This document shows positions 1,130-34,060 of a DNA stretch of 64,000 nt, piece after piece. The stretch comes from Candidatus Bathyarchaeota archaeon (GTDB lineage: Archaea; Thermoproteota; Bathyarchaeia; TCS64). The stretch spans positions 352,001-416,000 of the forward strand of contig CAVYVF010000023.1 of NCBI GenBank assembly GCA_963771885.1. The letters run 5' to 3'. How positions within the stretch are numbered: the first letter of the stretch is position 1; each line of letters begins with the position of its first letter. A program made the position numbers and the translations under genes. The notes under the pieces are model-generated. The model was given only the letters and a program-made list of their open reading frames with translations, was not told the DNA's origin and did not search any database.

Positions 1130-2521
1130 TTGGCAAGAAAGCCGCACCCCTATATCCCAAACTCGGTCCCAGGCGTAAAGGCGGAGATGCTTCATGCCGT
1201 TGGAGCATCGAGCGCCGACGAACTCTACGCGGAGATGATACCAAACAGACTGCTCTTCAAGGGAAAGTTGGATCTACCCGAGGCTCTCCCAGCCGAGTAC
1301 GACCTGAAGAGACATGTCGCCGGGATGCTGTCTCGCGACAAGACAACGAGGGACACAGTCATATTCCTAGGTGGAGGCTGCTGGAACCACTTCGTGCCTC
1401 AGATTTGTGATGATATCGCTGGGAGAAGCGAGTTCCTCACCGCTTATACAGGGGGGTACTATAGCGACCTCGGGCGCTTCCAGGCAAACTGGGAGTTTCA
1501 GAGCCTCATCTGCGAGCTCGTAGGGATGGAGGTCAGCGGGATCCCCACATATGATTGGGGGAGTGCTGCGGGGAACGCGGTGAGAATGGCTTCACGCCTC
1601 ACGGGTAGGCGCGAGGTAATCGTACCCGCGCACATGAGCCCAGCGCGCCTCAGCATCGTCTCCAACTTCTGCAACCCAACTAGGATGCCTGATGCAATCA
1701 AGGTCATCAAGGTAGCATATGATAATACGACGGGAACACTCGACATCAATGACTTGAAGAAGAGGATCAGTGATAAGTCGGCGTGCATCTACTTCGAAAA
1801 CCCCGGCTACCTCGGCACCATTGAGGACCAGGGCGAGGAGATTTCTGAGATTGCTCACAGGGCTGGAGCGGAGGTTGTCGTAGGAGTTGATCCGATAAGC
1901 CTCGGTGTCCTGTCCCCACCGAGCGATTACGGAGCTGACATAGTCTGCGGTGAGGTTCAGCCGCTGGGCGTTCACATGAGCGCAGGCGGGGGACTTGCAG
2001 GCTTTATAGCAAGCAGGGACGAGGAGAGGTACGTGGCGGAGTACCCGCTGCGCCTAATCAGCGTCACCGGCACCACTGTGGAGGGGGAGCGCGGCTTCGG
2101 TCAGGCAAAGTACGAGCGCACAAGCTACATGGCGCGAGAGAAGGCGAAGGATTGGGTCGGTACCACCACCGCCCTTCACGGCATTATTGCGGCGGTTTAT
2201 ATGAGTCTACTCGGACCCGATGGGATGAGAGATGTCGGGGAGGCGATTCTACAGAAGAGCCATTACGCGGCGAGGAGACTCAGCGAAATAGCCGAGGTTA
2301 AGTTCCCTGGCTTCTTCAAAGAGTTCCCTCTGTGCTTCGATGCGTCGAAGAAGAAAGTCGGACAAGTGAATAAGGCCTTACTCAAGAGGGGAATCCTCGG
2401 GGGAAAAGATGTCTCCCGAGAGTTCCCAGAACTAGGACAGTCGGCGCTAACGTGCTTCACCGAGGTGCACTCAAAAGCGGACATAGATGGATTCGCCGAC
2501 GCGCTAGAGGCGATACTATGA
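1130..2521 (+). CDS. gcvPA: Glycine dehydrogenase (decarboxylating) subunit 1
   Basis: HPYIPN, FLGGG, SEFLTAYT, FENPGYLG and GADIVCGE motifs; paired with subunit 2. Confidence 0.92.
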   Translation: MARKPHPYIPNSVPGVKAEMLHAVGASSADELYAEMIPNRLLFKGKLDLPEALPAEYDLKRHVAGMLSRDKTTRDTVIFLGGGCWNHFVPQICDDIAGRSEFLTAYTGGYYSDLGRFQANWEFQSLICELVGMEVSGIPTYDWGSAAGNAVRMASRLTGRREVIVPAHMSPARLSIVSNFCNPTRMPDAIKVIKVAYDNTTGTLDINDLKKRISDKSACIYFENPGYLGTIEDQGEEISEIAHRAGAEVVVGVDPISLGVLSPPSDYGADIVCGEVQPLGVHMSAGGGLAGFIASRDEERYVAEYPLRLISVTGTTVEGERGFGQAKYERTSYMAREKAKDWVGTTTALHGIIAAVYMSLLGPDGMRDVGEAILQKSHYAARRLSEIAEVKFPGFFKEFPLCFDASKKKVGQVNKALLKRGILGGKDVSREFPELGQSALTCFTEVHSKADIDGFADALEAIL

Positions 2522-4062
2522 TGACTTGTCCGAAGGTTCGACCATATCACGCAACGGTCTGGAGCGAGCCCCTCATCCACGAACTCGGACGCGAGGGGGA
2601 GAGAGGCGTCATCCTCCCAGCCGTCGAGGCGGAGATAACGGAGAGCGTCGGTGAAGTCGAGTCGCTCATTCCCAAGAAGATGAGGCGGAGGGGGAAGCCG
2701 GAGCTCCCCGAGCTCAGCCAGCCCCAGGTCCTTCGCCACTGGCTACACCTGAGCCAGATGACGCTTGGCATGGAGGGGGACATCGACCTCGGCGTCGGCA
2801 CATGCACTATGAAGTACAGCCCCAAGGTGAACGAGGAGCTCGCCGCAATGATCTCGGGGATGCATCCCGACCAGCCCGAGGAGACGATGCAGGGGCTACT
2901 GGAGTTAGCGTGGCGCTTCGGCGACGTCTACCTCCGGGAGATCAGCGGGATGGAGGCGTTTACGTTCCAGCCTCCGGGCGGCTCGGCGGGTGCCTTCAAC
3001 AATGCCGCCATCATGAGGAAGTACCACGAGCTGAACGGTGAGTTGGGGCAGCGGGACGAGGTCATCACGACAATCTTCAGCCACCCGTGCGACGCTGCGT
3101 GCCCCGCGACGGCGGGCTTCAAGGTGGTTACTCTGTATCCGGACGAGGAAACGGGACACCCCAGCGTCGAGGCGCTTAAGGCGGCGGTCAGCAAGCACAC
3201 AGCGGGGATATTCGTCACCAACCCCGAGGACACGGGCATATTCAACCGCGACATTGACGAGTGGACGAGGATAGTCCACGAGGCAGGTGGACTCTGCGCC
3301 TACGACCAGGCGAACCTCAACGCGGTGATGGGCGTAACACGGGCGAGGGAAGCGGGCTTCGACATGAGCTTCTTCAACTTGCACAAAACGTTCAGCAGCC
3401 CACACGGTTCGTCTGGGCCGGGGTCGGGGGCGGTAGGCGTTACCAAGGAGTTGGAGGACCTGCTTCCCATCCCCGTAATCGTGAAGAAGAAGGAAAAGTT
3501 TCACCTCGACTATAATCGCCCGAAGAGCATCGGGCGTGTACGCGACTTTCTCGGTAACCTGCAGGTTGTCGTACGCGCCTACGCGTGGGCGGTGGCGATG
3601 GGCGCCGAGGGGCTCAGGGAAGCGGCTGAGGTCAGCATGATAAACAACCAGTACCTCAGCGAGAAGATGAGGGAGGTTCCTGGGGTCTCTAAGCCCTACG
3701 GTGGGATGCGACTCGACCAAGCGCGGTGGAGCCTCGAGAAGCTCAAGAAGGAGACGGGCTGCGGGATTGGCGACGTAAACAAGCGTGTCATCGACTATGG
3801 TGTACAGAGCTTCTTCACTAGCCATCATCCCTGGATAGTGCCCGAGCCATTCACCCCGGAGCCATGCGAGACCTACAGCAAAGCTGACATCGACTACTGG
3901 GTTACCGTGCTTAAGCGGGTCTGCGAGGAGGCTTACGAAGACCCGAAGATATTGAAGAATGCGCCGCACAACTCGTCGATACACACGATCGACGTGGCGC
4001 CGTTAGACGATCCGATGCGTTGGGCGATGAGCTGGAGGGCGTACAGGAGGAAAATGAAGTGA
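2518..4062 (+). CDS. gcvPB: Glycine dehydrogenase (decarboxylating) subunit 2
   Basis: GTCTMKYSP, TNPEDTG and PLP-lysine motif NLHKTFSSPHG; ATG overlaps the gcvPA stop. Confidence 0.92.
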   Translation: MMTCPKVRPYHATVWSEPLIHELGREGERGVILPAVEAEITESVGEVESLIPKKMRRRGKPELPELSQPQVLRHWLHLSQMTLGMEGDIDLGVGTCTMKYSPKVNEELAAMISGMHPDQPEETMQGLLELAWRFGDVYLREISGMEAFTFQPPGGSAGAFNNAAIMRKYHELNGELGQRDEVITTIFSHPCDAACPATAGFKVVTLYPDEETGHPSVEALKAAVSKHTAGIFVTNPEDTGIFNRDIDEWTRIVHEAGGLCAYDQANLNAVMGVTRAREAGFDMSFFNLHKTFSSPHGSSGPGSGAVGVTKELEDLLPIPVIVKKKEKFHLDYNRPKSIGRVRDFLGNLQVVVRAYAWAVAMGAEGLREAAEVSMINNQYLSEKMREVPGVSKPYGGMRLDQARWSLEKLKKETGCGIGDVNKRVIDYGVQSFFTSHHPWIVPEPFTPEPCETYSKADIDYWVTVLKRVCEEAYEDPKILKNAPHNSSIHTIDVAPLDDPMRWAMSWRAYRRKMK

Positions 4063-27233: not shown

Positions 27234-28625
27234 CTACTCCCGGCGCTTGAAGAGGAGCCAGTTCTTCTCACCAGCCTTAGTGAAGTGGACGAGCTCGTAG
27301 CCGCCCCTGAGACGCTCCCCGTGGATGACTATGGAGACCTTCTCCGGCGTCCACTCGACGGTCTCGTAGGTGCCCCTGTCCCAAATCTTGACGGTGCCCG
27401 CACCGTACTCACCCTTCGGGATCTCTCCCTCGAAGCCACCATAGTCTAGGGGGTGATCCTCCACAGCGACGGCGAGGCGCCTCTCCCCCGACTTCTCGGG
27501 CGGCCCCTTCGGCACCGCCCAGCTCTTCAGCGCACCGTCCCGCTCCAACCTGAAGTCCCAGTGCAGGTGGCTCGCGTGGTGCTCCTGGACGACATACATG
27601 TTTCCCTTCAGTTTCGTGCCTTCGCCGACGGGCTCGGGGCTCTTCGAGAAGTTCCTCTTAGAATTGTACTCTTCGAGGGTCAAGGGCTTCACCTGCGATA
27701 GTGTGCAGTCGCGGGGGGTTTTATCGGTTCTCAGTCTGATGAACCGGGGGGCACGCAGGCGGTCGTCGTCGGTTAGGTTCTGGTAACCGACCTCGGCGAC
27801 GACGCTTGGTTTGAGCCATGTGGAGTACGCGGGGATGTCTGGGGCGTCGACCTGTTTCTCCTGCGTCTCGTATGGGCGGAAGGCGGCGATCAACTCGCGG
27901 AGCTTCTTCTCAGTGAAACCCGTACCCACCCTGCCAACGAAGGTCAGCTTATCCCCTTCGTAGAGCCCGAGTAGCAGCGCCCCGAAGGAGTCCGCCCTGT
28001 TACCCGTCCCCCTCGTGTAACCAACGACGACGCAGTCCGCCGTCTTCACCCTCTTCACCTTTAGCCATTCCTTGCTCCTCTCCCCCGGGCGGTAGAGGCT
28101 GCGTAGCTTCTTAGCGACGACGCCTTCTAGCCCTTTCGCGGCGGCCGCCTCGTAGTAGGCCTCCCCCTTCTCCTCGACGTAGCTTGAGACGACGACATGC
28201 TCCCCGTCCCGGAGCGATTCTCTGAGTATCTTCTTACGCTCGTTCAGTGGCTTCGAGGTTAGGGGTTTTCCGTCCTTTTCGAGTATGTCGAAGACGACGT
28301 ATGTGCTCGGCGTCTCCCTTGCCTCCCTTTCTATGTCGCGGGGCTTGGACGCCTGCACCCGCTTAGCGACCGCTTGGAAATCAGGGCGCCCGCCCTTCAT
28401 GACGATAATCTCGCCGTCGACGACGACGTTCGACGCCAGCTTGGTGAGCTCGGCGAGTTCGGGAAACTTCATCGTGATGTCGTTGTCATTCCTACTAAGT
28501 ATCTGTAGTTTCTCGCCGATGTGGGCTATGGCGCGTATGCCGTCCCACTTTACCTCGAAGAGCCATCCACCCCGGCTAAAGGGGGCGTCGGCGGGCTCCG
28601 CGAGCATCGGCTGGTACTTCATCAC
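27234..28625 (-). CDS. ligD: NHEJ ATP-dependent DNA ligase fused to a C-terminal 3'-phosphoesterase (PE) domain
   Basis: PMLA, EVKWDGIR, DGEI, FDILE, EGVVAK, WLKVK and an OB fold, then LEEYNSKRNF..SPEP, VVQEHHASHLHWDFRLE, SWAVPKG, EDHPLDY and GAG.V.IWDRG. Confidence 0.93.
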   Translation of the reverse strand: MMKYQPMLAEPADAPFSRGGWLFEVKWDGIRAIAHIGEKLQILSRNDNDITMKFPELAELTKLASNVVVDGEIIVMKGGRPDFQAVAKRVQASKPRDIEREARETPSTYVVFDILEKDGKPLTSKPLNERKKILRESLRDGEHVVVSSYVEEKGEAYYEAAAAKGLEGVVAKKLRSLYRPGERSKEWLKVKRVKTADCVVVGYTRGTGNRADSFGALLLGLYEGDKLTFVGRVGTGFTEKKLRELIAAFRPYETQEKQVDAPDIPAYSTWLKPSVVAEVGYQNLTDDDRLRAPRFIRLRTDKTPRDCTLSQVKPLTLEEYNSKRNFSKSPEPVGEGTKLKGNMYVVQEHHASHLHWDFRLERDGALKSWAVPKGPPEKSGERRLAVAVEDHPLDYGGFEGEIPKGEYGAGTVKIWDRGTYETVEWTPEKVSIVIHGERLRGGYELVHFTKAGEKNWLLFKRRE

Positions 28626-29416
28626 TTCTTCATCTGCGCCAGTGTCTGCTCTAAGGCTACCATCAGTTCCTTGACCTCCTCCTTCTTCTCGGGTTTTTCG
28701 ACGTGGATAGTCTCGCCTTTGAGCTTCTTCTTGATCAGCTTCTCAACGTTCTCGCGGTAGGTGTCCTTGTACTCGGTTATGTCGAATTCGCCAGTAAGGT
28801 TATCAAGTATCTTGTAGGCGAGCTCCAGTTCCTTCTTGCTCGGCTGCTTCAGCTCCTTCAGGTCCTTGACCGTCATCGGCTCTATGACCTCGTTTGGGTA
28901 GCGTAGCGTCGTGAGTATGAGGGCGCCTTTGTAGCTGTGTATAAGGACGGGGTACTCCTTCGTACGCATTGTGTAGCGCCCCACCCCCGCCATGCCTTTC
29001 TTCTCCAAAGCTGAGTAGAGGAGCCCGTAGGCGTCCACGCTCTTGTCGGGGCCGAGGATGTAACTGCTAAGGAAGTAGAGGGGATCGACGCCCAAGTACT
29101 GGACGAACTTGTCAATCTTAATGCGGCGGTCGGACTCGGGGCGTATGGCGTCGAGCTCCTCCTTCGTGAAGGTGACGAACTCCCCCTTCTCAACCTCGTA
29201 GCCGCGTGCCACGTCCGACCATTCCACGACCTCGTTGTCGTAGGTGCAGACCCTCTGGTACCTCAGCGGACACCCGTCCTTCTTACGTAGGAAGTGGAAG
29301 CTGTAGCTCTTGTCCCTGATCATCGTGTATAGCTTCACGGGCACGTTCACGAGCCCGATGCTTATCATGCCACTCCAAAAGCTCCGTCCGGCTGGCGCCT
29401 GCTCCTCATCGCTCAA
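28622..29416 (-). CDS. ku: Ku DNA end-binding protein (core only)
   Basis: RSFWSGMISIGLVNVPVKLY, V.RGYE, TLRYPNEV, FD..EYKD.Y and LM.AL. Start placed at TTG 29416, about 30 nt after a TATA-like GTTAAA. Confidence 0.93.
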   Translation of the reverse strand: MSDEEQAPAGRSFWSGMISIGLVNVPVKLYTMIRDKSYSFHFLRKKDGCPLRYQRVCTYDNEVVEWSDVARGYEVEKGEFVTFTKEELDAIRPESDRRIKIDKFVQYLGVDPLYFLSSYILGPDKSVDAYGLLYSALEKKGMAGVGRYTMRTKEYPVLIHSYKGALILTTLRYPNEVIEPMTVKDLKELKQPSKKELELAYKILDNLTGEFDITEYKDTYRENVEKLIKKKLKGETIHVEKPEKKEEVKELMVALEQTLAQMKK

Positions 29417-29460
29417 TGGTAACCCCGGTTTGAACCTCGGAAGCCATGAGTTTAACCTTT

Positions 29461-29673
29461 TCACACAATGAAACTGAATAGGGTATTTGTCCGCCCCATC
29501 GCGAATGAGAAGATTACGAGCCCAGAGAGTATTATTGCGACTACATCCATCAGTGTCTGGTACCTCGCGTCTAACTTGCTGAACCACCGCCACCAGATGA
29601 ACCAGGAGAAGACAAACGCTAGCAACACGAAGATCGAAATGTCGCTAACGTCGATGAATATTGTGTCACTCAC
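29461..29673 (-). CDS. Small two-TM membrane protein
   Basis: 70 aa with two hydrophobic segments; BRE/TATA-like AAAACCGTTAAAG upstream. Confidence 0.5.
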   Translation of the reverse strand: MSDTIFIDVSDISIFVLLAFVFSWFIWWRWFSKLDARYQTLMDVVAIILSGLVIFSFAMGRTNTLFSFIV

Positions 29674-29921
29674 CGGGTGTCAAGCTGGTTCTTAGAACTC
29701 GCCGCTTTAACGGTTTTCTTTGCTTTGGGAAATTATTGGGTGTGTTATTTGGGATGGGTTATCAGCCGCCGTTCACTCGGACCTCTGAAGGCGTGGAAGC
29801 GTGAAGAAGCCGACGAAGGAGCAACTGAAGAAGGGATGCGTCATCTGCGTGAAGTTGATGACGGGTGACTATCACGGCGCGGTCATTGACCTTAGCCACG
29901 ATGCAGGCTTCTTTGACAAGC

Positions 29922-30791
29922 TCATGAGGATGCCTTGGATTCGCGGCTCTTCCACTTCTTAGAAGCCCAGAAGTCCTTCCAGTGGTCCTGCCTCTCCGGG
30001 ACGTTCTTCAGAGTGAATCTTATGGGATCGAGGTCGTCTAGCTCCTCCCACGTGATGGGTGTTGAAACAGTCGCCGATGGCGTTGCTCTAAGGCTGTAGG
30101 GGCACGCCATCGTCCGCCCCCTCCCGTTCTGCGGGTAGTCTATGTAGATCGTCCCCGGCTTCTTCTGCCCCTTTTCAGAGGAGACTATGCCCGTCTCCTT
30201 TGCGAGCTCCACTCCGACGCTGTGGGCGTATGCGCGGGTCGCCTCGTAGGTCTCGCTGCGGTCGAGGCGGGCGACGACGTGGAGCCCCCTCTTCCCCGAG
30301 GTCTTCACACACGCCTCGAAACCCCTATCCTTTAGCTTACCTCTGATGAGGCGTGCCACCTTGACCATCTCTGGGATGCCCGCGGGGGGCTGAGGGTCGA
30401 GGTCGAAGAGCACCATGTCGGGGTGATCAGGTTTATCGATCCTCGCTAGGGGGATGTGAAGCTCAAGTGCTGCGAGGTTCGCGAGCCAGATGAGTGTGTC
30501 GAGGTCGTCGCAGATAATGTAGTCGAGCTCCCTCCCCGCCGCCTCGGAATAGGTATGATGGAGGCGGACCCAGTCCGGCGTCCCCTGAGGCGCGTCCTTC
30601 CCGTAGAAGCCCTCCGTCTCGACTCCGTCGGGGTAACGCGTCACAACAAGCGCCCGCTCCTCGAGGAAGGGCAGCATCCTAGGCGCAACGATGATGTAGT
30701 ACTTCACGATGTCGAGCTTTCTCACCTCCGCGGCGGGGTAGAGGACCTTGTCTAAGTTAGAGAACTGGACCTTGGTGAGCTTCTCCATCAA
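29922..30791 (-). CDS. LigD-type primase-polymerase (stand-alone POL domain)
   Basis: SNLDKVLYP, RYPDG, FDLDP, KTSGKRGLHV, YIDYPQN and PYSLRA. Confidence 0.92.
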   Translation of the reverse strand: MMEKLTKVQFSNLDKVLYPAAEVRKLDIVKYYIIVAPRMLPFLEERALVVTRYPDGVETEGFYGKDAPQGTPDWVRLHHTYSEAAGRELDYIICDDLDTLIWLANLAALELHIPLARIDKPDHPDMVLFDLDPQPPAGIPEMVKVARLIRGKLKDRGFEACVKTSGKRGLHVVARLDRSETYEATRAYAHSVGVELAKETGIVSSEKGQKKPGTIYIDYPQNGRGRTMACPYSLRATPSATVSTPITWEELDDLDPIRFTLKNVPERQDHWKDFWASKKWKSRESKASS

Positions 30792-30822: not shown

Positions 30823-31245
30823 CTAGGCTAGGGTTATCTCCGGCTCGAGTGTGACCTTCGCCTTTATTGACTGCCAGATTAGGCTGTACTTCTCCGCCAG
30901 CTCCAGGGCGCGCCTCACCTTCTCTTCGGTGCAGCCGCGTATAACGATCTTCGGCCTGAGGGTAACTGCGTCGAACGTAGATGTCCTGTCTAGGAACTCC
31001 TCGACGTGCCCCTCGGCCTCGCATGTGTAGCTTATGAGGTCAATCTTGAGCCTCTCGACACTCCAGATGAACATTAAGGCGTAGCATGTGTTCAGGGCAG
31101 CAACGAAAGCGTCCTCGGGAGTAAGCACCCCTACCACTCCCTTGATGTCGGCGGGCGCCGAGAAGGGGAGAACGGGGCCGTTACTCAGCGATACCTCGCC
31201 GCTGTGACCCCCCGTCCACCTGGCTGTGGTCCTGTAGGTCACCAA
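30823..31245 (-). CDS. OsmC/Ohr-like protein
   Basis: TPEDAFVAALNTC (peroxidatic Cys); AEKYS at the usual resolving-Cys position. Confidence 0.8.
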   Translation of the reverse strand: MVTYRTTARWTGGHSGEVSLSNGPVLPFSAPADIKGVVGVLTPEDAFVAALNTCYALMFIWSVERLKIDLISYTCEAEGHVEEFLDRTSTFDAVTLRPKIVIRGCTEEKVRRALELAEKYSLIWQSIKAKVTLEPEITLA

Positions 31246-31647
31246 CTACGCGGCCTCCTGAATCTCACCAATCTTCAGGGCGAGCAACTCGGCTATTCGA
31301 CGTGCCGCTTTCAATCCTTCGGAGTCGAGTGTCCTCCTCCCCTTCGGTAGCTCGGCCCCCCACTCATTGAGGAGCGCCTCGACGTCAACGCCCGCGGCGG
31401 GCTCCTTGCTGTATTTTGTTATCGCCTTGTAAGCGCAGTGCTTCCCGCAACCGTCCACCGCGATCGTCGGGTGATCCTTGGCGAAGCTGTGCTCCTGCTC
31501 CTCCCCTGCGAAAAAGAGGGGCAGGCAAATGGTCACGGTCTGATCTGATCCCTCAAGTGCTAGGCGCGTCGCGACCCTGCTTAACGTCCCCAGACCGCAG
31601 CACTCTCCACTGCAGGAGACGACGCCTATCTTCGGCTTTATCTTCAT
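31246..31647 (-). CDS. DGC-domain putative zinc-binding protein
   Basis: SCSG, TICL and IAVDGC..HCA. Confidence 0.85.
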   Translation of the reverse strand: MKIKPKIGVVSCSGECCGLGTLSRVATRLALEGSDQTVTICLPLFFAGEEQEHSFAKDHPTIAVDGCGKHCAYKAITKYSKEPAAGVDVEALLNEWGAELPKGRRTLDSEGLKAARRIAELLALKIGEIQEAA

Positions 31648-32048
31648 GGCTGTGCCTCCCAGAGCTCGTCGACCTTCACCGCTAACTTTTCGGCGAGTAT
31701 CTTGGAGAGCTTCTCACCGTCCTCGTCGAGTGTGGTGACTGTGCGTGGGCGTAAGCCGCGGTTCTCCCTAAGCAGGTCCATGACTCGGAAGTGGGCAGCG
31801 ATCCTGCCCCCACTATGCTCGACGTTGTTGCCGGAGCATTCGAGGGTGCATCCGTCTACGGCGATGCATGTGCTCCCTGCTACCTTGCGTCTCGCCTCCT
31901 CGTCGCCCATGACGAGCAGCGAGAGGCAGAGCGTATCCGCCTTCCCCGGGCGCAGTTCATCGCAGACACGGAAAACGGCGTCTCGGCTTATCGAGCCGAA
32001 GGACTTCCCTATGCCGCTGCAGGGGATGACGAGTATCGGCTTCTTCAA
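31644..32048 (-). CDS. DGC-domain putative zinc-binding protein
   Basis: PCSG, TLCL and IAVDGC..ECS. Confidence 0.85.
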   Translation of the reverse strand: MKKPILVIPCSGIGKSFGSISRDAVFRVCDELRPGKADTLCLSLLVMGDEEARRKVAGSTCIAVDGCTLECSGNNVEHSGGRIAAHFRVMDLLRENRGLRPRTVTTLDEDGEKLSKILAEKLAVKVDELWEAQP

Positions 32049-32049
32049 G

Positions 32050-32502
32050 TTACATCCCCTTTATCTTCCTAAGCTCCTCGACGACCTTGATCTTCATCGA
32101 CTCAAAGTAATCTTCCGCGGAGATGAGGACGCTCAATCCGGAAGCTGGTTTGATGACCGCCACCCAGCCCCCACCGTAGGGGTCACGGTTGATGACCTCG
32201 GGCTTTGACTCGATGGTGGGGTTGACTTCAACTATCTCTCCGTCGGTTGGGCTCAGTATGTCCTGCACCATCTTCACTGTCTCGTAGCTGCCGATGAAAC
32301 CCCCGTTAGTGATCTTGGTTCCGACTGGCCGAGCCTCCGCGAAGACAAGGTCGCCAGCTCTCCTCTGCGCGAAGTCGGTTAATCCAACCCTGATGCTTTC
32401 ATCGGCTTCGCGTTTCACCCAGACCTCATCCCGGGAGTATAGTAGGCCCTTCTTGGCCTTGAACACGAACTTGTCAGCAGTTGTCTCGTAGTATTCACTC
32501 AT
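32050..32502 (-). CDS. Glycine cleavage H-like lipoyl carrier protein
   Basis: VGLTDFAQ..AGD, lipoyl-Lys motif ETVK, SP..GEIVEVN and IN.DPYG.GW. Confidence 0.88.
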   Translation of the reverse strand: MSEYYETTADKFVFKAKKGLLYSRDEVWVKREADESIRVGLTDFAQRRAGDLVFAEARPVGTKITNGGFIGSYETVKMVQDILSPTDGEIVEVNPTIESKPEVINRDPYGGGWVAVIKPASGLSVLISAEDYFESMKIKVVEELRKIKGM

Positions 32503-33554
32503 CACTTCTTCTCCTCCACCTTCCCAATTCCTTTCCGGTTGCGGGGGAAGTAGCCGCATGTGTGCAGCCCGAAGCGCACTAGGCTGAGCATCAGCGGGAC
32601 CTCGAAGAGGGGTCCGATGACGGTTGCCAGTGCAGCGCCACTGCCGATGCCGTACAGCGTTGTTGCCACGGCTATGGCGACTTCGAAGTGGCTGCTCGAG
32701 CCGATGATTGTACAGTCAATGGCCGTGGGGTAGTCCCAGCGCATATACCAGGCGAGGGCGTAGGTCCATACTATCATAACGGCGTAGTGGATGAGGTTGG
32801 GTACGGCGATGAAGAGGACGAGCAGGGGATCGCTGAGTATTATATTGCCCTGGAGGCTGAAGAGGACGATGAGAGTGACGAGGAGGGCGAGGAAACTGAC
32901 CTTACCCGCCTTGGCGCGGAATACGTCGTCGAACCACTCCTTGCCCTTGGCTGGGATGAGTATCTTCCTCGTGAGTGCGCCAGCGGCTACGGGTACGAGT
33001 ATGAAGAATACGACACTCATGACGATGAGGTCCCAAGGTACAGGGATGCCACTGACGCCTAGGTAGAACGCCGCCATAGGTGCGTAGAGGAGTATCATGA
33101 GTACCGCGTTTACAGCCGTGTTAATGAGCCCCTGCGCCATATCTCCCTTGGCGAGGAGCATCCACCACATCACCATCGCTGTGCACGGCGACAAGCCAAG
33201 CAGTATGACGCCGGCTATGTAGTCGGGGTGCCCCGCGAGGAAGACGTTGGCGAGCAGCGTCATCAGCGCCGGCGCGATGACCCAGTTTGCGAAGACCGTG
33301 AACATTATCGGCTTCGGGTTTTTCGCCGCTTTCTTCACATCCATGAAATCGATACCGAGGATCGTCGGGTACATCATGAAGAAGAGGCAGATTCCGATGG
33401 GGATCGATATCTGGGCAAACTTTAGCGAGTCGAGGTACTGCCCGAAGCCGGGGGCGAACTTGCCTAGGAGTAGTCCGATCGCTATGCATATTCCGATCCA
33501 GACTGTTAGGTACTTTTCTATTATGCCGAGTTTCTTCTCCGACACGGCGATCAC
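32502..33554 (-). CDS. acr3: ACR3 arsenite efflux transporter
   Basis: EKYLTVW, MMYP, PCTAMV, SSHFEVAIAVA and GPLFEVP. Confidence 0.92.
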   Translation of the reverse strand: MIAVSEKKLGIIEKYLTVWIGICIAIGLLLGKFAPGFGQYLDSLKFAQISIPIGICLFFMMYPTILGIDFMDVKKAAKNPKPIMFTVFANWVIAPALMTLLANVFLAGHPDYIAGVILLGLSPCTAMVMWWMLLAKGDMAQGLINTAVNAVLMILLYAPMAAFYLGVSGIPVPWDLIVMSVVFFILVPVAAGALTRKILIPAKGKEWFDDVFRAKAGKVSFLALLVTLIVLFSLQGNIILSDPLLVLFIAVPNLIHYAVMIVWTYALAWYMRWDYPTAIDCTIIGSSSHFEVAIAVATTLYGIGSGAALATVIGPLFEVPLMLSLVRFGLHTCGYFPRNRKGIGKVEEKK

Positions 33555-33646
33555 TTTTCATCAACGTTACTACACCCTAACATATTAAGTTATGTGGATA
33601 TGTGGATGGATGTATGTTTAAACACCTCGCCTCCCAAGGGACGCCT

Positions 33647-34060
33647 ATGGTCAGCGTACTGTTCATATGCGTCCACAACGCGGGCAGGAGCCAGATAGCG
33701 GAGGCGATCTTCAACAGCCTCGCAGACGGGCGCCACCTCGCCAAGAGCGCTGGCAGCAAACCAGCAGACCAAGTTAACCCCGTCGCAGTCGAGGCTCTGA
33801 AGGAGATAGGTATAGACATCAGCGGCAGGAAGCCAAAGAAGCTGGACGCCGACCTCGCCCTCGGGGCGGACCTAGCTATCACAATGGGCTGCGGTGACGA
33901 GCCCTGTCCCGTAGTCACCGGCGAGTTAAGGGACTGGGACCTCGAGGACCCCCATGGGCAGCCCATCGAGAAAGTCAGGGAGATCAGGGACGAGATACGA
34001 CGGAGGGTCGAAGCTCTCGTCGAGGAACTCGATAAATGGTCTATACCCTCCCCGGATTAA
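33647..34060 (+). CDS. arsC: Arsenate reductase (LMW-PTP fold)
   Basis: CVHNAGRSQ, ITMGCGD..CP and WDLEDP. Confidence 0.9.
   Translation: MVSVLFICVHNAGRSQIAEAIFNSLADGRHLAKSAGSKPADQVNPVAVEALKEIGIDISGRKPKKLDADLALGADLAITMGCGDEPCPVVTGELRDWDLEDPHGQPIEKVREIRDEIRRRVEALVEELDKWSIPSPD

Follow-up and report, generated by a model that had tools for sequence, protein, structure and literature searches.

The 64,000-nt window analyzed here (Candidatus Bathyarchaeota archaeon, GCA_963771885.1, CAVYVF010000023.1:352,001-416,000; genome of 2.46 Mb, 92% complete) contains a minus-strand operon in which acr3, encoding an arsenite efflux transporter, is followed by genes for a GcvH-like lipoyl carrier (H-like protein, or H), two DGC proteins, and an atypical OsmC-fold protein. 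The module formed by these genes is real, conserved, and linked to arsenic resistance (ars) genes, and it is apparently undescribed. It is best explained as an accessory part of the ArsR/Acr3 arsenic regulon in anaerobes. Some involvement in the arsenic response is very probable; as to its work, we tentatively favor a lipoyl-dithiol relay that would serve the DGC proteins in handling trivalent arsenic [As(III)], through capture and hand-off to Acr3 combined with protecting or repairing lipoyl enzymes.

The operon opens with acr3 (32502..33554; TIGR00832, 342 bits against a cutoff of 283) and continues with the H-like gene (32050..32502; PF01597, E = 1e-32), DGC1 (31644..32048; PF08859, E = 1e-14), DGC2 (31246..31647; PF08859, E = 1e-15), and the OsmC-like gene (30823..31245; PF02566, E = 7e-13), all on the minus strand. 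From acr3 onward, the junctions consist of a 1-nt overlap (TGATG), a 1-nt gap, a 4-nt overlap (ATGA), and a 0-nt gap; the first overlap indicates translational coupling of the H-like gene with acr3. On the plus strand, arsC (33647..34060; probable start, inferred from a homolog alignment) encodes an LMW-PTP-fold arsenate reductase (PF01451) with a CVHNAGR loop, a distal Cys pair, and a DP motif, for which the best NCBIfam arsenate reductase models score below cutoff. Genes for an arsenite exporter and a reductase are clustered at this locus, and arsC is accessory to the module rather than part of its core. Coordinates, junctions, and Pfam matches agree with the first-pass annotation, which had described five packed head-to-tail genes divergent from arsC and had placed the H-like gene ∼28 kb from gcvP (gcvPA/PB, window positions 1130-4059) with neither gcvT nor lpd adjoining it. 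The same annotation had called the DGC proteins four-Cys proteins; four Cys in each are indeed family conserved (PF08859, DGC motif), while the total is six in each.

The gene arrangement is not due to chance, as the same order recurs across many genera. DGC1 matches were found in 43 of 251 Bathyarchaeia genomes, from which eight genomes with weak matches (E about 1e-4) were dropped and 35 with strong matches were kept (40 loci, the window's own included). The core of H plus the DGC pair is present in 35/251 genomes (about 14%). Locus maps were drawn for 39 loci from 34 other genomes, with gene labels taken from profiles built on these loci and representatives checked by Pfam. Two layouts emerged: type A, [arsR][acr3]-H-DGC1-DGC2-OsmC-like, and type B, in which [acr3][arsR] is accompanied by an HdrA-N-like gene, a ferredoxin, three or four DGC genes, and H. 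H was present in 34 of the 39 loci, and all five misses end at a contig edge. Among the neighbors, ArsR (n = 28), acr3 (n = 27), and OsmC-like (n = 26) genes predominated over ArsC (n = 16), ArsM (n = 8), and HdrA-N-like (n = 8) genes; where ArsC does occur beside a cassette, it is found in either orientation and comes from different subgroups. The core thus tracks ArsR and Acr3 rather than ArsC and ArsM, as expected of work on the As(III) side. In one locus (L045; G219:C32), a P-type ATPase gene stands between arsC and H in lieu of acr3.

Linkage of the GcvH-DGC-OsmC block to ars genes in other genomes, on which the first-pass reading had depended, was confirmed. While acr3 occurs in 112 of the 251 genomes, it was found in 31 of the 35 cassette genomes and within 8 kb of the cassette in 27; in a control using canonical-type H matches of 93/109 genomes, the best match lay within 8 kb of acr3 in 1 of 42. 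At least 585 relatives of DGC2 were retrieved in a metagenome scan. Among the 80 best, a set that favors close kin and includes near-duplicates, H was present in 68 loci, an ars effector gene in 47, and an OsmC-fold gene in 59. Of the well-flanked loci, those from genomes had H in 23/23 cases and an ars effector gene in 22/23, and those from metagenomes had them in 25/26 and 26/26, respectively (ars effector gene in 48/49 overall). Some metagenome loci are bacterial, a DGC1 cluster including members from Anaerolineae; Atlas look-alike clusters, mainly from Chloroflexota and Bacillota, provide a further lead. A scan of genome contigs with a narrow H alignment returned 15 loci, comprising 12 from Bathyarchaeia and 3 Natronorubrum H genes.

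Judged by its sequence, the H-like gene is not a housekeeping gcvH. Its product has the H fold and, as the first-pass annotation had pointed out, an intact lipoyl Lys in ETVK (Lys77, GSYETVK), located in the E-x-x-K hairpin; this Lys is kept in 106 of 107 aligned H rows. Alignment, tree, and motif counts place the protein in a cassette-specific branch. It has an N-terminal ADKF extension and a C-terminal helix. Cassette H proteins lack the HEW motif (0/47, versus 29/30 canonical-type H proteins); they are acidic (median isoelectric point [pI], 4.8), and 26 of the 47 contain no Cys, as is true of the window protein. In a quick tree of 82 rows (5 ungrouped), supported only by the Shimodaira-Hasegawa-like approximate likelihood ratio test (SH-aLRT), the 47 cassette proteins separated from 30 canonical-type proteins (SH-aLRT of 97); the latter adjoin gcvT in 26 cases and include the single non-Bathyarchaeia row. 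The window protein fails the equivalog model TIGR00527 (103 against 115.85) and passes the broader NF002270 (121.7 against 117). The Glu of HEW is presumably Glu-14 of the methylamine cavity, and the absence of the motif is consistent with a carrier that has been released from glycine cleavage while retaining its lipoyl arm. Glu-14 is listed among the cavity residues of H protein in the accessible text of 10.1101/2021.03.28.437365.

Two further H proteins are encoded in the genome, one adjoining gcvT (C2:423510) and one (C23:997497) that follows an hdr/mvh hydrogenase cluster and is paired with a lipoate ligase. The possibility left by the first-pass annotation that the window gene is the only, canonical gcvH can therefore be set aside. 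DGC1, DGC2, the OsmC-like gene, acr3, and arsC are all single copy. The ligase-paired gene directly follows hdrA-mvhD-hdrC-hdrB-mvhG-mvhA and a maturation protease (L005; C23:988274-999077), and its lipoyl product may be a disulfide substrate of Hdr in a nonmethanogen. Extra divergent H-like genes also occur in or near the islands of related loci (L064:14310-14723, L061:877-1242, and L136:2696-3133), one of them without the lipoyl Lys.

The DGC pair is the constant partner of this carrier. DGC1 conserves C10, C41, C67, and C71 (with C61 in 34/38), and DGC2 conserves C12, C41, C67, and C71. H lay within 1.5 kb of none of 30 single DGC genes of other subfamilies; therefore, pairing with H is specific to this subfamily. 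A confident model of DGC1 (predicted local distance difference test score, 95.6) has a flavodoxin-like alpha/beta fold, and three fold searches found no clear solved relative, returning generic alpha/beta matches (best, 3pu6; Z, 8.7; root mean square deviation, 3.0; 115 aligned residues). HHalign comparison of DGC with MvhD/HdrA-N was not significant (P of 0.01 to 0.11), with Cys in register and a similar strand-helix order; MvhD and HdrA were absent from the DGC fold-search lists, but the wide search likewise failed to list HdrA when queried with a true homolog. Kinship to MvhD/HdrA-N is thus suggestive only. Binding of Zn by PF08859 is a guess made by Pfam. Among 19 proteins scanned from the best 150 of 455 DGC2-profile matches, natural fusions joined DGC to Thioredoxin_3 (P0168 and P0229) or glutaredoxin (P0282), and six were tandem DGC-DGC proteins; DGC domains repeatedly join dithiol carriers. 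A plasmid search gave no match for DGC2. In bacterial-type DGC2 proteins (L151:4986-5729 and L136:4986-5696), a C-terminal extension of ∼100 residues without a Pfam match opens with a CxCG-like motif.

Dihydrolipoyl groups are a textbook target, and a high-affinity ligand, of trivalent arsenic. We rank capture first among the possible roles of the relay because the core follows ArsR/Acr3 rather than ArsC/ArsM and because dihydrolipoyl is the natural ligand; binding of arsenite to lipoic acid is reported in the accessible part of PMC10138600, with dihydrolipoyl as a ligand also covered in that of PMC6453569. We infer, with good support, that a lipoate-protein ligase lipoylates Lys77 and that dihydrolipoamide dehydrogenase (Lpd) keeps the arm reduced, both acting in trans here and being co-encoded in some bacterial-type loci. 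With moderate support, the dihydrolipoyl dithiol would exchange with the four-Cys sites of DGC1 and DGC2, a part that thioredoxin or glutaredoxin would play in the DGC fusions. Most likely, the arm would act as a decoy that traps trivalent arsenic in place of the lipoyl enzymes of the cell; the DGC pair and the OsmC-fold protein (through C54/C75) would then unload the arsenic by thiol exchange, Acr3 would provide the exit, and the arm would be regenerated. A more specific version is rather doubtful: dedicated protein-bound lipoic acid would be bait and shuttle in a new kind of arsenic defense, unloaded by DGC proteins with MvhD/HdrA-N-like Cys or Fe-S sites that may also strip poisoned lipoyl enzymes.

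Use of the lipoyl group in redox chemistry, as proposed in the first-pass annotation, gains support from related loci in which Lpd and lipoate ligase (LplA) are co-encoded and DGC is fused to H. Locus L148 reads arsE-arsF-arsG-lpd-HdrA-N-like-ferredoxin-DGC::H fusion-DGC-DGC-lplA, L124 reads arsR-arsP-like-lpd-DGC-DGC, L165 ends in lplA, and L156 has a tandem LplA-like pair. The Lpd, LplA, ArsE, ArsF, and ArsG proteins of L148, L124, and L165 exceed NCBIfam cutoffs, and the DGC::H fusion exceeds both Pfam cutoffs; an Lpd flag in L070 was not counted. The window's genome encodes Lpd (over cutoff), three LplA-like proteins, and a 2-oxoacid dehydrogenase E2 as a lipoyl target.

Several observations weigh against a capture relay within the arsenic regulon. 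The cassette is optional, since 81 of the 112 acr3 genomes have no detected cassette, and the genomes are related, so the counts overstate independence. In L066, a well-flanked locus, the only ars-related gene is one of the ArsR family, and L124 has no H before its contig end. Lpd (two full and one partial) and LplA (n = 5) are found in a minority of the 80 metagenome loci, and lipA was not found in the 92%-complete genome. No arsR adjoins the window operon; a different contig carries both an arsR of the cassette-linked kind (C22:356128-356613) and arsM, the latter in two pieces. The imperfect palindrome ACATA-N6-TATGT between acr3 and arsC (33580..33595, without strand), a weak candidate for an operator or promoter element with a similar site in the close relative L037, ranks only 317 to 607 in genome scans with the relatives' operator motif. 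This motif was built from 46 sites found upstream of 34 of 60 arsR/acr3 genes, and its core, forced to ATTTAAA, may be a TATA box; the operator search was given no weight as support. Finally, the ferredoxins, Fe-S domains, small thioredoxins, and CcdA of related loci are as indicative of electron flow as of capture.

An electron-donor relay is accordingly the first alternative to consider, although we regard it as unlikely. Electrons would pass from NADH through Lpd (or from ferredoxin through the HdrA-N-like protein) to the lipoyl-H and DGC proteins, to be used by ArsC, ArsM, or ArsEF or for direct reduction of pentavalent arsenicals. Lpd, ferredoxins, Fe-S domain proteins, ArsE-type or small thioredoxins, ArsFG, and CcdA do recur in the loci, DGC-thioredoxin fusions exist, and the stand-alone type B protein is a homolog of the HdrA N-terminal domain (HHalign, 95%, E = 2e-8; top seven Foldseek matches all HdrA, E = 4e-5). 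This protein (L061:8693-9061 and L218-L237) has five invariant Cys and no Pfam match. The candidate acceptors are inconstant, however: ArsC stands beside 16/39 loci, in varying orientation and subgroup, and ArsM beside 8/39. The first-pass annotation had reasoned that ArsC may draw on the lipoyl group because thioredoxin is not encoded here. This statement holds for the operon and fails for the genome, which has five PF00085 (thioredoxin family) matches, two at E ≤ 3e-26, and a reductase-like neighbor; the argument is weakened accordingly, and further by the infrequency of ArsC relative to ArsR and Acr3.

Repair of thiols or peroxides under arsenic stress is improbable. In such a scheme, C54 would be resolved by C75 or by the lipoyl arm, and the module would resemble the Trichomonas L-H-OsmC system or the proposed Hyphomicrobium pair of GcvH-like and OsmC proteins. 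H and OsmC-fold genes do share an operon (26/39 and 59/80 loci), the catalytic C54 is kept in 89/89 rows and C75 in 86/89, and precedents are described in the available excerpts of 10.64898/2026.10.01.755906 and PMC5384416. The OsmC-like protein has eight solved relatives (best, Ta0195; E = 5e-19) and scores below all NCBIfam OsmC/Ohr cutoffs. According to the accessible text of PMC5384416, the hallmark of Ohr/OsmC proteins is a Cys pair, with the resolving Cys ∼60 residues downstream, and single-Cys Ohr mutants lose lipoamide-coupled activity. In the window protein, Ser121 aligns to this second Cys; across the 89 rows, the position is Ser in 81, Gly in 1, and a gap in 5, the 2 rows with Cys being separate ordinary OsmC genes, so the resolving Cys is absent from all cassette-type rows. 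Given that absence and the behavior of the single-Cys mutants, the protein is not to be filed as a classical peroxidase, although it may work with the lipoyl group in another way, and C75 and H14 (81/89) are newly conserved. Repair would also leave the DGC pair and the ars linkage unexplained, and the OsmC-like protein lies outside the invariant core, which further weakens the lipoyl-dependent OsmC peroxidase envisaged initially. It is missing from type B cassettes, where an HdrA-N-like protein and a ferredoxin often replace it, probably keeping thiols reduced in those lineages. The two occur together in 0/119 loci at E < 1e-10. Strict exclusivity was rejected: L164 has an HdrA-N-like protein with an ordinary two-Cys OsmC, and L068 has one with a 63-residue OsmC fragment.

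Storage of lipoate is very improbable. A stress-induced GcvH paralog would hold DGC-shielded lipoate for arsenic-poisoned E2 or GcvH, as GcvH-L of Staphylococcus aureus serves as a stress lipoate reserve (PMC12440151, accessible portion). LplA-like genes adjoin 5/80 metagenome loci, in tandem in L156, and with lipA not found, lipoate may be scavenged; however, LipL models score far below cutoff, SirTM/macrodomain proteins are not among the recurring neighbors, and storage would need neither Lpd nor ferredoxin. A general metal, sulfur, or Fe-S module hitchhiking in ArsR-headed islands, perhaps with sulfane sulfur or thioarsenicals as substrates, in analogy to LbpA with TusA/DsrE, would suit the DsrE, TusA, P-type ATPase, and XdhC genes of some loci and the single DGC genes of other Thermoproteota, which adjoin an HdrA-N-like gene and what we take from its motif to be an Mrp-like ATPase with no ars genes within 1.5 kb, but it too is very improbable given the ars effector genes in 48/49 well-flanked loci, the coupling to acr3, and the absence of the LbpA-typical two Cys from most cassette H proteins.

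Some observations concern regulation and the surroundings of the loci. Upstream of arsM, an AT-rich palindrome (C22:287417, L244) was the top genome match in three of five motif scans (ranks 8 and 12 with the arms only); it is a candidate archaeal ArsR operator overlapping a TATA box. Scans for sigma-70 promoters and terminators were at chance level. RNA contigs had a depth of 2 to 6, with runs holding 5 to 10% of words and no piece over the OsmC-like gene. Downstream of several cassettes lie genes for small Cys-pair proteins (L164:469-834 and L038:9264-9623) without Pfam or NCBIfam matches, whose N-terminal pattern, to our eye, recalls ArsD. Directly downstream of the window operon, on the same strand, is an archaeal nonhomologous end-joining set (primase-polymerase, Ku, and ligase plus phosphoesterase; 27234-30791), as in L037 and L081. 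Near the 2-oxoacid dehydrogenase cluster (L242:729-1477) are a rubredoxin-like/ferredoxin:thioredoxin reductase-like gene and a thioredoxin-like gene, families that we presume from motifs. Several genes are split by frameshifts, probably through assembly errors: arsM (C22:286598-287393), E2 (C2:269579-270842), and several hdr/mvh genes (C23:988274-995503).

A literature search, in which subscription journals were largely outside coverage and supplements were not covered, found no description of this gene set, in keeping with the initial impression that the combination is not a described pathway, and no ars gene product that uses or repairs dihydrolipoyl groups. Among the papers found, PF08859 appears in one only, in whose accessible text it is a gene of unknown function in an arsR-arsP-arsE operon (10.1101/2022.10.17.512643). 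A text search of PMC10332631 returned no mention of DGC or arsenic, and matches to "dgc" in the accessible text of 10.64898/2026.10.01.755906 were to the string HdGcvH. As a soluble four-gene module of ∼14% of sampled Bathyarchaeia and of Anaerolineae-type bacteria, the system is directly testable in vitro. If the proposal is correct, it would supply the first function for PF08859, a family that keeps appearing without an assigned role in ars operons of anaerobes, and a role for an OsmC subfamily without the Cys pair; it would bear on arsenic cycling in anoxic sediments and would mean that lipoic acid, the classic target of arsenic, has been turned into a tool of defense.

The module resembles several known systems in part. 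The H-protein/L-protein/OsmC peroxide system of Trichomonas vaginalis and Hyphomicrobium Hden_1299, a GcvH-like protein proposed as donor to the OsmC protein Hden_1301, likewise combine a stand-alone H paralog with an OsmC-fold protein, with Lpd as the likely reductant (excerpts of 10.64898/2026.10.01.755906 and PMC5384416). In contrast, the cassettes lie in ars clusters and invariably pair H with two DGC proteins, and their OsmC-like protein can be substituted and lacks the resolving Cys. The GcvH-L/LplA2/SirTM system of S. aureus (PMC12440151, in part) shares a GcvH paralog dedicated to stress defense, sometimes with its own ligase; the cassette partners are instead DGC and OsmC-like or HdrA-N-like proteins in an arsenic context, and no SirTM/macrodomain protein was found among the recurring neighbor clusters scanned, singletons being only partly scanned. 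The sHdr-LbpA system of sulfur oxidation (PMC6067878, in part) recalls type B cassettes, where an Hdr-derived protein and a ligase likewise accompany the GcvH-like carrier. The cassettes, however, have only the HdrA N-terminal domain, with no hdrB/C among their recurring neighbors, and their acidic H proteins do not conserve the two Cys near the termini that characterize LbpA in the available part of 10.64898/2026.10.01.755906. The closest DGC context is the arsR-arsP-arsE-DGC cluster of Pseudodesulfovibrio mercurii, an ArsR-headed cluster with a PF08859 gene by a small dithiol protein (10.1101/2022.10.17.512643, in part). That DGC is single, different, and without a lipoyl carrier, whereas the cassette DGC proteins are a paralog pair always found with H. 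ArsD and ArsA form an As(III) metallochaperone relay, and this pair offers a model of how the module might work, by thiol-exchange hand-off of As(III) to efflux. A Pfam scan of the five operon genes revealed no homology to ArsD or ArsA, and the capturing dithiol would here be a cofactor rather than protein Cys.

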